In this document: positions 15,001-18,000 of the stretch, in pieces
How the letters are laid out: each line of letters begins with the position of its first letter
Position numbering within the stretch: the stretch's first letter is position 1
Program-made: the position numbers
From: Acidobacteriaceae bacterium
GTDB lineage: Bacteria > Acidobacteriota > Terriglobia > Terriglobales > Acidobacteriaceae
Direction: 5' to 3'
DNA length: 64,000 nucleotides
NCBI GenBank assembly: GCA_003131635.1
Contig: PKVZ01000024.1
Span: 1,605-65,604, forward strand

Positions 15001-18000
15001 GCAACTCGGTGCGCTTCAGTTCCAGGGTCAGCAACGCGCTCTTCAACTGCTGCAGCACGGCGCCGTTATCGGTTTCCCGCATCTGTGTGGTCAGCCGATC
15101 AGGCGTGGTTCCGGACTGCTGCTCCAGTTCGTGGATCTTTTGTTCGGTGGCGGCCATCTCAGCTCGCGCCTGTTCCAGCGAGGCGCTGAAGTCGTTGAGC
15201 TTCGCCAACGTCATGTCCCGCGAAACCTGGGGAGCCACGCCGCTTTGTTCCTCGGAAAACTTTTTCAATTGCTCTTCCGCTTGATCCAAGTCGTGTTTGT
15301 AGCGGTCGGTCTCTTCCTCAAAAAACTTCAACTGCCCGGGTGGCCGGTTCACCGCTACGTGTTTTGCCGTGTAAGCGATAATGACATTGTTTAGGACTGT
15401 CGCGGCCAACTTTGCATCGTGCGCCGAGTACGTGATCTGAATGACGTTGGTCTTCTTCAAGGGATCAACTCGCAGGTTGCCCTTCATCTTGTCGATCGCC
15501 TTGGCGACCTTCTGCTCCTGACTCTCGCCAAACAGAGACGACAACAGAGACTTCCGCTTGTCCAGCCCTGACGCCAGCACGGCCTCGCGCAAAACATCCT
15601 CGCTGAGGATCAACTGGGCCTCGGAATTCAGTTGTTCTTCGGTTACTTCACCCACGATTTGCGTCGGATCGTTTTTCTCGGCCGTGACCACGGGATCGAC
15701 GCGTTCGCGCTTCACCACAATCTGCGCCGTCGAGTCATAGCTGGCCGGCAGCAGCAAAATGGCTGCGATTGTGCCCAGCAATATCCCGACAAAGCAAAGC
15801 ACGAAAGCACGCTTGTGGCGAAATCCAACGGCTAACAGATCGCGAAGCGTGAAGCCGAAGCCGCTTGCGCTCGGGGCGTGCGTAAAATCCTGGTCTTTCA
15901 TATCTTCTCCTGTGGGTCCTGACGATCCAAGGGGGGAATGGTGTGAAATCGCAACTTAAGGCTGGGCCATCACGGCGCCCGCGCTGAGTCCGGTGTAGGG
16001 TATGAAGGGCTTGATCTTAGAGAAAGAGTTCTTGGGCACAAAAAGCATATCCCCAGGATGCAGCAGCGGATCTTCGTGCAAATCGCCCTTCTTCTCCATA
16101 GCCTTCAAGTTGAAAACCTTGGCAAACATCCACTGATCGTCGACCCGGCGATAAAGGCGCACCTGCGAGTGCTTGGCCGCCTCGGTAAAGCCTCCCGCAA
16201 CCGCGATCGCTTCGGCTAAGGTGACATTGCCGCGCATGTCGTATTTGCCTGGATGGCTGACCTGGCCGTCGGCGATGAAGAAAGGCTTCTGAAAATCTTT
16301 CAGCACGACCACAATCAGCGGATCATTCAGAATCTTGCCATACGCCTCGCGCAGAGTTTGCGTGAGCTGCGGGACACTCTGGTCCAGCACCTTCACGTCG
16401 CCGACGCTCTTCAGCGTGACAAAACCGTCGGGCTGAACGGTTACGGTCTGGTTGAATTCCGGGCTCAGTTCAAACGACACGTCGAAACTGTCTCCCGCGC
16501 AAATCCGGTAGCGCGTCTCACGCGGCTGGAGCTTAGGCGCCGTCGCGCTTGTCCCAGAGGAGGCCGTATCCGGGTTCGAAGTCGCTACAAGATGCGCCGA
16601 CCCTGCCGGGGAATTTTCTTGCGCTGTGGCAAGTCCGAGTCCGAGGACGGCAACCATCAGAATTCCCGCCAGCCATCCAATCCGTTTCATCATGAAGCTC
16701 CTCTCAGCGTTAAAGCCCAACACGCGCCCGGCTCCGAGCTGCGATCTAAAGATTAACTCAACTTTGTCGACGTTCATCGGGTTGGCTCAGGAATATTAAA
16801 TTGCCCGCTCTATTATTCTTTCGTTACTAAATCGCTGAGCAGAAAATTACAGCTCCGCCCTCTGAGTCCCATAAAGCTGACCCTTGAAAAAGCAAAAACA
16901 CGGAAACTAATCTGCCGAGATGTAGCCTTGAAAGGCCACGCTACCCGCGGAGATTAGGCATCGCACAGTATTCGTAAAGGGGGGATGACGCTTGAGTGCC
17001 AATAAAGCGACACACTTAAGTTGAGTAAGGCTAACTGGGAATGCAAGATACTGCAAGAGGTCAAAAGCACTACCTACCAAAGACTCTATCGACCTTCGAT
17101 CTGTCCAGGCTCTTCCTCCGCATGACCTTTGTTTGCAACAGGTTGCAGGTACATCATTTTCGCGCCCTGTTTGAGGGGGAAACTTCATGGCCCCTGCTTA
17201 TGGCGTTGCTGCACACAGTTCTTTCAAGCGCAGCATGGTCTTTGCCGCCAAAGTCGCAGGAAGTTGCACACGAACTTTGAAAAGCCGCGCCCAATGCGGC
17301 GAGAGCGCAGAATTCATTTGACATCTCAGTGAAATGTGACTTAGAGTTTGGTGTCTCCCCCCCAAGCAGAATCCTCAGGAGAACCCACACAAGTGTCAAA
17401 CAAGCGCAAGCCGTTTCCATCCGTCAACGCGCCGTTCGAGATGATTATGGAGCAAGTCTCGACTTGCATAGCGACCACCCAGATTCCGGCCACAGCGAGC
17501 GTGGCCTCCGAGGAACGATCCATGACGAAGAATCCAAGTCTGTCTTTTCGCGTGCTGGCGATGCTGATTGCTCTGACGGGATTGCTTGCGTCCACCGCAA
17601 GCGCGCAGTACGCCGGTCAATTCAGCTGGGGAAACAGCAATCTGAACGAGACCGCGCTGACGCCCCAGAACGTCAACACCACGCAGTTTGGGAAGCAGTT
17701 CTCTTATTCGGTGGACGGCAGCATATTTGCGCAGCCGTTGTATGTCCCCAATGTCGCCATCCCAGGCCAGGGAACCCATAATGTCCTTTACGTTGTGACG
17801 GAAAACGACGACGCTTACGCCTTCGACGCGGACGGTTTGTCGGCCAACCCGCTCTGGTACACAAGCTTTATCAATCCTTCCGAGGGGATCACCGCAGTTC
17901 CGTGCCAGTTGATTACCGCCAACCTTTGCAACATTGCTCCAATTATAGGAATCACGGGTACGCCCGCCATCGATACCTCCACGAATACGATGTACCTCGA

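Follow-up and report, generated by a model that had tools for sequence, protein, structure and literature searches.

In a peat-soil Acidobacteriaceae bacterium (contig PKVZ01000024.1, assembly GCA_003131635.1), a stretch of 64,000 nucleotides, hereafter called the window, carries three minus-strand copies of a conserved block, designated A, B, and C. This position-fixed, promoter-shaped module heads three transcription units of a polysaccharide locus in the window as well as equivalent operons across many uncultured relatives. The three blocks are probably copies of one factor-dependent, sigma-70-type promoter. The reading that we consider likely is that this conserved promoter, whose weak core is embedded in two pairs of direct repeats, drives the three tandem polysaccharide units under the control of a factor and of the transcribed leaders. 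All comparative tests that were run agree with the original prediction, in which the block was described from the sequence of the window as a shared promoter/operator module.

Identification of the three copies

The degenerate pattern GAGACTTTGGT-N5-GNGCTTTTGGCCTCTTG, with up to three mismatches allowed, matched the window only at 17054-17086, 43652-43684, and 54105-54137, all on the minus strand, and was not matched once in 100 dinucleotide-preserving shuffles. The same three places were grouped as family D14 by a repeat search of the window, and a profile made from 49 diverged relatives gave exactly three matches in the 64 kb, again at these places. The three minus-strand copies of the original prediction were thereby confirmed together with their positions.

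Architecture of the conserved module

A weighted logo was built from 50 unique diverged metagenome copies with an effective number of sequences of 37.5. The conserved unit extended from about -68 to +1, and upstream of -68 the logo held essentially no information. The unit was composed of box 1, T(A/G)GAGaCTTTnGT, at -67 to -55, box 2, gGCtTTyGrCCwC, at -48 to -36, and a core with TTGCAG at -35 to -30, A at -28, TTGCA at -25 to -21, and TAnnCT at -12 to -7. The A at +1, seven bases after the TAnnCT hexamer, was 85% conserved, and C-8 reached 89%. Several columns of the logo were fixed by the anchoring pattern used to align the copies. The unconstrained yet highly conserved columns were G-56, T-55, C-46, T-44, T-43, C-39, C-38, and C-36 in the boxes, and A-31, A-28, C-8, and A+1 near the core, where G-30 was kept too. 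TTGC and TA...T were invariant, 17-18 bp apart, in 20 genomic copies and were still conserved in about 50 diverged metagenomic copies.

Column-against-column comparison revealed two direct repeats, TTGCAR at -35 and -25 with a 10-bp offset, and GaCTTT at -63 and -48 with a 15-bp offset. Among dyads within boxes 1 and 2, only a weak AGAG...CTCT was found. An inverted match between AGACT (-64 to -60) and AGTCT (-11 to -7) rested on three invariant columns, was within chance, and was discarded. The module thus holds -35-like and TAnnnT -10-like hexamers, which in sigma-70-type promoters are 16-18 bp apart. Boxes 1 and 2 and the spacer TTGCA provide what marks an operator, namely position-fixed conserved sequence outside the core hexamers together with internal repeats.

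The conserved upstream part had been placed by the original prediction at the usual position of an activator site, and it was indeed found at -36 to -67 with a sharp end at -68. The limits of the block had to be moved at both ends. The 5′ letters GGaCGA (minus strand) with which the predicted block began are kept in close relatives only. Since the copies become unalignable directly upstream of aTAGAG, GGaCGA lies outside the conserved unit, and diverged copies start at aTAGAG, at -68. At the 3′ end, where the block had been closed at TAnnnT (minus strand), conservation runs on to the A seven bases downstream and into the leader.

With these limits, copy A occupies 17021-17089 on the minus strand and spans -68 to the predicted +1 at 17021, with box 1 at 17088-17076, box 2 at 17069-17057, TTGCAG at 17056-17051, the spacer TTGCA at 17046-17042, and TAGCCT at 17033-17028. 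Copy B, also on the minus strand (43619-43687), spans -68 to the predicted +1 at 43619 and contains box 1 at 43686-43674, box 2 at 43667-43655, TTGCAG at 43654-43649, TTGCA at 43644-43640, and TACTCT at 43631-43626. Copy C (54070-54140, minus strand) has an 18-bp spacer, so that its predicted +1 falls at 54071/54070; its parts are box 1 at 54139-54127, box 2 at 54120-54108, TTGTTT at 54107-54102, TTGCA at 54096-54092, and TAATAT at 54083-54078. These assignments were based on sequence, pattern match, and orthologue alignment, with position-wise conservation for A and B and the profile search for C.

A promoter-like site of a different type is present on the plus strand, 230 nt from block A. 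At 17318-17347, a near-consensus TTGACA-18-TAGAGT faces the divergent gene of a 1431-aa immunoglobulin (Ig)-repeat protein (17348-21643). This site suggests that the housekeeping consensus of the organism is ordinary, against which the TTGCAG/TAnnCT pair of the block stands out.

The same contrast would suit a reading in which RNA polymerase itself recognizes the whole of -67 to -7 and no separate regulator takes part; either an alternative sigma factor would be used, or the alpha subunit would touch the T-tracts of boxes 1 and 2 in the manner of an UP element. The unusual conserved C-8 and a -35 element of TTGCAG instead of TTGACA fit this idea, and each of boxes 1 and 2 has a T-tract at roughly the position of an UP element. 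However, UP elements are A/T-rich throughout, whereas the boxes contain the invariant G-63, C-61, C-46, C-39, and C-38, and no sigma-factor gene was present among the annotated open reading frames of the window. We regard recognition by polymerase alone as unlikely, also in view of the gene association described below.

Distribution in genomes and metagenomes

One genome per species from 185,579 species was scanned with a 20-letter degenerate pattern. The scan returned 18 stretches, 17 of them real copies, which were distributed over nine soil and peat genome bins with 1-3 copies per bin. Seven of these bins were labelled Acidobacteriaceae, one Candidatus Sulfotelmatobacter, and one Candidatus Aquilonibacter. 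A match in a Deltaproteobacteria bin (L002) lacked the TTGCAG and -10 parts and was treated as chance. Copies orthologous to A, B, and C were present in at least 8 other Acidobacteriaceae genome bins. The genomic copies sorted into these three types and were near-identical within each type from aTAGAG through the hexamers into the leader.

For an unbiased metagenome sample, contigs were scanned for a 21-mer alone, the block having no part in the selection. This 21-mer contains the 18-mer GACTCAGAGGGCGGAGCT, an ops-like element of the leaders downstream of the block. At least 120 metagenome contigs (L019-L138) were obtained, in which the element lies upstream of UpxY, wza, or HTH_8 genes. Among the matches listed, the block was present in 70 of the 106 leaders with at least 300 nt of upstream sequence, its 3′ end lay a median of 154 nt from the ops-like element in these 70, and the first gene downstream encoded an UpxY homologue (about 50 loci), wza (about 19), an HTH_8 protein (about 17), or a sugar transferase. 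The block copies selected in this way were far more diverged than the genomic ones.

A profile search of the 896 kb of collected sequence gave 112 matches, exactly three of them in the window. Those without the exact 17-mer core of the ops-like element stood before UpxY paralogs with variant ops-like sequences, before NHL orthologues (type C), or before a tyrosine kinase gene. All 112 matches, and the significant matches at loci fetched by homologues of the HTH_8 protein, lay upstream of polysaccharide-locus genes and were co-oriented with them.

Copies scattered without relation to gene starts, which the original prediction had named as evidence against itself, were not seen: all were intergenic, in one orientation, and 120-560 nt upstream of polysaccharide-cluster genes. 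The block is a repeated sequence, and UpxY-family genes in Bacteroides go together with invertible promoters (PMC11685472), so that a dispersed repeat of the repetitive extragenic palindromic (REP) or miniature inverted-repeat transposable element (MITE) kind, or a promoter cassette that inverts, as those of Bacteroides capsule loci do, was considered. Its probability is negligible. There were only 1-3 copies per genome, all in the polysaccharide locus and in fixed orientation to the downstream gene. In the window, the pattern occurred on one strand only, the three copies were not surrounded by shared inverted repeats, and these paralogous copies had their motifs in common but differed in their flanks. 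Both the invertible promoter and the REP- or MITE-like repeat were rejected on these grounds.

A candidate DNA-binding factor

The second gene of unit B (42352-42729, minus strand) encodes a stand-alone helix-turn-helix (HTH) protein of the Fis/NtrC type (Pfam HTH_8), which carries neither an AAA+ nor a receiver domain. Its family has more than 1100 stand-alone members of about 100-130 residues, with an almost invariant core of about 50 residues (TLRSLRAETE...SISYRGLLYKIRQHNIT), a nearly invariant recognition helix, and variable tails that are probably disordered. The AlphaFold2 model was too poor for a fold search (mean pLDDT, the predicted local distance difference test, 58), and a sequence search of solved structures was therefore used instead, which gave the DNA-binding domains of sigma-54 activators as the nearest.

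The presence of the block and of the HTH gene was compared at 53 non-redundant ops-selected loci. Both were found at 26 loci, the block only at 13, the HTH gene only at 1, and neither at 13, which corresponds, among the matches listed, to p = 1.3e-4 in a Fisher test that ignores shared ancestry. When loci were fetched via HTH homologues of 52-57% identity, three of three had the block (54-66 bits). In each it stood in the long intergenic stretch before the operon to which the HTH gene belongs, and one locus had an extra type-C copy before an NHL gene. Distant HTH_8 members always headed polysaccharide operons, arranged as NusG-HTH or HTH-wza-wzz. The near-invariant recognition helix fits an equally conserved target. 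The original prediction had put forward the Fis-type HTH protein as a candidate, and its co-occurrence with the block makes it, as far as sequence comparison can indicate, the leading candidate for the block-binding factor. This co-occurrence would be left unexplained if polymerase alone read the block.

A bound HTH_8 protein could also act as a repressor, the repeats of the same promoter being an operator at which it shuts off its own unit and the other two. TTGCAR-N4-TTGCAR spans -35 to -20 and overlaps both the -35 hexamer and the spacer, a place at which binding of a protein would keep RNA polymerase out. Taken as a dyad, TTGCA-N6-TGCAA has 78% complementarity, a form of site to which a dimeric Fis/NtrC-type domain would be suited. 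With the HTH gene inside unit B, negative autoregulation would be natural. However, the conserved T-25 fits the direct repeat and not the dyad, the boxes at -63 and -48, which the polymerase footprint does not reach, are as conserved as the core, and weak core hexamers usually go with activation. Repression therefore appears rather doubtful to us.

The resemblance of the HTH_8 protein to sigma-54 activators raised the question of a sigma-54 promoter. Such promoters have GG at -24 and GC at -12 at a fixed spacing (TGGCAC-N5-TTGC). The TTGCA of the block equals a sigma-54 -12 element, the cluster is of the type associated with XrtA/PEP-CTERM, and its proteobacterial counterparts use sigma-54 (PMC1569441). 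On the other hand, the obligatory GG at -24 is absent, an invariant T standing there, and the spacing between TTGCAG and TTGCA is one base short of the fixed sigma-54 spacing and variable in copy C. The HTH_8 protein lacks the AAA+ domain, and TAnnCT and the A downstream would be left without a role. On the missing GG and the spacing a sigma-54 promoter was ruled out, and we give it hardly any credence. A sigma-70-type promoter bound by a dedicated factor is the reading retained here.

RNA evidence and weighing of the promoter reading

Assembled Logan contigs from public metatranscriptomes were used as RNA data, the depth being a flat mean over each contig. Between 43658 and 43606 at copy B, an interval that holds the predicted start 43619, run X24 showed a rise in depth from 6.9 to 67 and run X26 one from 2 to 12.4, a 6-10 fold step across the predicted start in two runs. 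At copy C, RNA contigs ended at 54051, 54060, and 54087 in three runs, near the predicted start 54070. These data are compatible with a start just downstream of TAnnCT and are mildly supportive of it, without being proof. RNA contigs tend to end where the conserved region does, which is what strain mixtures predict, and their ends are therefore unreadable as 5′ ends. Truncated metagenome contigs were also tried as a proxy for transcript ends and were uninformative.

Several points weigh against the factor-dependent promoter. The RNA data give contig depths and not mapped start sites. Two RNA contigs extend to the 5′ edge of block C or past it, to 54145 in run X40 and to an adapter-marked 54156 in run X24. 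RNA contigs cross block B in runs X27, X29, X30, and X25, and low-level RNA is present across blocks B and C. The RNA over the blocks reflects read-through from upstream genes or possibly an upstream start; no terminator-like site was seen in the stretches that separate blocks B and C from the genes before them, and read-through is therefore to be expected. Each core hexamer matches the consensus at just three of six bases, because of which a plain consensus scan misses all three sites. The link between HTH gene and block is a correlation without phylogenetic correction, and membership of one clade could account for it. Dyads are the usual targets of Fis/NtrC-type domains, whereas the block has direct repeats as its clearest ones, and whether the factor would activate or repress cannot be read from the sequence.

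The RNA contigs bear most directly on a reading in which the block is transcribed as the 5′ part of the leader RNA and transcription really begins at box 1 or slightly upstream. The two contigs that extend to or past the edge of copy C, together with one ending at 43692 (run X25), have ends at or just upstream of the 5′ edges of the blocks, and other contigs run through block B as described. However, contig breaks at the block edge are expected from mixed strains, since the assembly graph of a strain mixture branches where conservation ends, and depth rises downstream of the block and not at its 5′ edge. The hexamers, their spacing, and the A seven bases on fit a promoter, no conserved -10 or -35 was seen upstream of -68, and the 20 copies gave no consensus structure (RNAalifold -2.48 kcal/mol, 0 compensatory pairs). 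There was no Rfam match at gathering score in the window and nothing relevant at E up to 5 in leaders A and B. With neither a consensus fold, nor covariation, nor an Rfam match, a structured cis-regulatory RNA was rejected, and a transcribed block is in our judgment very unlikely. The sigma-70-type promoter with its predicted start at the conserved A is kept in what follows.

Leaders and the ops-like element

Leader A (16693-17020, minus strand) is about 328 nt long, with a C-tract at 16984-16979 and the ops-like GACTCAGAGGGCGGAGCT at 16868-16851; wza follows, with its Shine-Dalgarno sequence and ATG at about 16706-16691 on the minus strand. Leader B (43392-43618, minus strand; about 228 nt) has a hairpin at about 43616-43594 and a C-tract at 43560-43555 and ends before the upxY ATG at 43391. 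It contains, on the minus strand, a weak ops-like site, GGAGGCGGAGCT, at 43500-43489 and a hairpin with the ops-like GGTCACGGAATGTGACTCAGAGGGCGGAGCT at 43455-43425. Leader C (53754-54069, minus strand) measures about 317 nt, has its C-tract at 54010-54005, and leads to the NHL-repeat gene, which starts with GTG at 53753.

The exact 18-mer is common to leaders A (16851-16868) and B (43425-43442), about 150-180 nt downstream of the block, and no ops-like element was found in leader C. Its core, GGCGGAGC, resembles the RfaH ops site GGCGGTAGC, and in many loci the element is preceded by a GTCAC-N5-GTGAC hairpin. It is likely the loading site of the UpxY-family NusG paralog encoded in unit B. The block itself was also considered as a JUMPstart/ops element and rejected, as it lies upstream of the predicted start and lacks GGCGGTAG; the separate leader element is the ops-like candidate.

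The run of six C, in the context (T/A)CCCCCC(A/T), is present in all three leaders. Of 70 related leaders, 61 had a run of at least five C, with a median position of +49, compared with 13% of control windows. The C-tract might be a Rho-loading site or a protein-binding site.

RNA of leader B was 3-10 times deeper than that of the upxY coding region, and recurrent RNA ends were seen at 43490 (one run) and at 43402-43404 (four runs), some of them marked by the read-1 adapter. These ends and the drop in depth suggest that, shortly before the upxY start codon, transcription terminates early or pauses, or the RNA is processed.

Several metagenome loci (L033, L034, L054, L071, L106, and L133) contain two UpxY paralogs, each with its own block promoter. 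The paired paralogs have differing ops-like variants, for example GACTGAGAGGGCGAAGCT or CATACTTGGGCGGGGTGAT, which hints at paralog-specific elongation control under a common initiation signal.

Gene context of the three units

The targets named in the original prediction were recovered, with copy A preceding wza-wzz, copy B the NusG paralog, and copy C the NHL-repeat protein gene. Copy A occupies an intergenic region between divergent genes. Downstream of it come wza, wzz, an XrtA-type ATPase gene, and a priming sugar transferase gene, after which unit A continues with more polysaccharide genes as far as the sulfotransferase genes. The cluster as a whole belongs to the XrtA/PEP-CTERM-associated type.

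Copy B lies 85 nt past the stop of a peptidyl-prolyl isomerase (PPIase)-like gene and precedes the NusG paralog gene. Unit B runs in the order upxY, the stand-alone HTH_8 gene, a tyrosine kinase gene, acyl-CoA and nonribosomal peptide synthetase (NRPS)-like genes, and glycosyltransferase genes. The NusG paralog (42873-43391, minus strand; Pfam NusG) is the first gene of the unit and belongs to the UpxY family, scoring 121.9 bits with NCBIfam NF033644 against a cut-off of 100; with the RfaH model it reached 78.7 bits, under the cut-off of 144.5.

The NRPS-like genes of unit B lie on the minus strand at 24521-28618, 31496-34285, 34180-35475, 35475-37352, and 37843-39645. The set comprises a C-A-T-TE protein, an A-T-TE protein, an A-T protein, and a free adenylation enzyme, accompanied by a cytochrome P450, an acyl-CoA dehydrogenase, and a hexapeptide transferase, and it may serve an acylated or peptide-decorated polymer.

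Copy C lies 8 nt past the stop (54148) of the gene of an unannotated 587-aa protein and precedes the gene of a 1002-aa NHL-repeat protein, from which unit C extends through a PPIase gene. Three paralogous proteins of about 590-665 aa without a Pfam match are encoded on the minus strand at 46423-48414, 48464-50461, and 54148-55911. Two of them are in tandem with a 2047-bp repeat spacing (families D1-D3). They sit between promoters C and B and upstream of C, beside FG-GAP and NHL-repeat proteins.

Proposed mechanism

On the reading favored here, a core of TTGCAG, a 17-18 bp spacer, and TAnnCT would start transcription at the A 7 bp downstream, and the three copies would drive three tandem minus-strand units (C, B, A) of one polysaccharide super-locus. 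The repeats would be contact sites of a dedicated DNA-binding factor, for which the HTH_8 protein is the best candidate and which would govern initiation at the three promoters jointly. Since the HTH_8 gene is inside unit B, the circuit would be autoregulatory and would feed back on all three units. A second checkpoint would follow initiation in the long leaders, at the C-tract and, in A and B, at the hairpin and ops-like element. There the UpxY-family NusG paralog would load and carry RNA polymerase through units of 10-22 kb. The recurrent RNA ends in leader B and the excess of leader depth over upxY are as expected if much transcription stops in the leader.

Significance and comparison with known systems

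Acidobacteria are among the most abundant bacteria of soil and peat, and the extracellular polysaccharides that they make are important for the aggregation of soil and the retention of carbon. We know of no cis-regulatory element or regulon that has been defined for this phylum. A full-text literature search with the motif sequences, and with Acidobacteria together with UpxY/NusG, returned no prior description of the motif or of a link between UpxY and Acidobacteria. The motif makes it possible to predict from metagenomic sequence which genes are co-regulated with polysaccharide export; among them are those of large NHL- and Ig-repeat surface proteins and of an NRPS-like module. It also offers a concrete candidate protein-DNA pair and a natural regulated promoter for genetics in a phylum with few tools, and it extends the UpxY/ops paradigm outside the Bacteroidota.

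The block is a new cis-regulatory motif of a familiar kind. At activator-dependent sigma-70 promoters, sites are found near -41.5 and -61.5, and direct repeats of the pho-box type replace or overlap the -35 element. Likewise, the block has weak hexamers, with box 2 centred at about -42 and box 1 at about -61, and its 10-bp direct repeat, which overlaps the -35, stops 8 bp short of the -10. To our knowledge, its motifs match none of the CRP, FNR, and PhoB consensus sites, and the candidate factor is of the Fis/NtrC HTH type and not a winged-helix or CRP-family protein.

The closest parallel in gene order is that of the Bacteroides capsule operons, which consist of a promoter, a leader of about 100 nt with opsX, upxY, and upxZ, and whose UpxY proteins load at opsX pause-hairpin sites of about 40 bp (Saba et al., 2024; PMC11685472). 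As in Bacteroides, an UpxY-family NusG paralog comes first and a small regulator gene second in the polysaccharide operon, a long leader holds a hairpin and then an ops-like element, and some metagenome loci have several UpxY paralogs, each with its own leader. Unlike the invertible, locus-specific promoters of Bacteroides, however, the acidobacterial promoters are not invertible and have one common upstream architecture. The second gene encodes a DNA-binding HTH_8 protein instead of the anti-UpxY protein UpxZ, and one ops-like sequence is common to the operons and not private to each. With the RfaH/ops/JUMPstart system of Enterobacteria, the locus has in common a short element in the leaders of several long polysaccharide operons. 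However, JUMPstart is an element of the transcribed leader, whereas the block, located ahead of the predicted start, is a promoter, and the NusG paralog scores as UpxY and not as RfaH.

The PEP-CTERM box combines a TTTACA-containing activator site with a sigma-54 -24/-12 promoter and is bound by PrsR, a full response regulator; its authors found it only in Proteobacteria and stated that other motifs were still to be found (Haft et al., 2006; PMC1569441). Like this box, the block is a conserved cis-regulatory motif before exosortase-type polysaccharide genes, and its presence tracks a Fis-type HTH regulator. It differs in that its promoter is of the sigma-70 type and its HTH_8 protein stands alone, without receiver or AAA+ domains. 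The common promoter, the HTH_8 partner, and UpxY together may constitute a new variant of control by NusG paralogs. As a tentative proposal, possible though hardly probable at present, this would be a two-tier control widespread in soil Acidobacteria, in which HTH_8 sets initiation via the block, UpxY sets elongation, and both are made from one of the promoters that they control, unlike the UpxY, UpxZ, and invertible promoters of Bacteroides and unlike the sigma-54 PEP-CTERM box.

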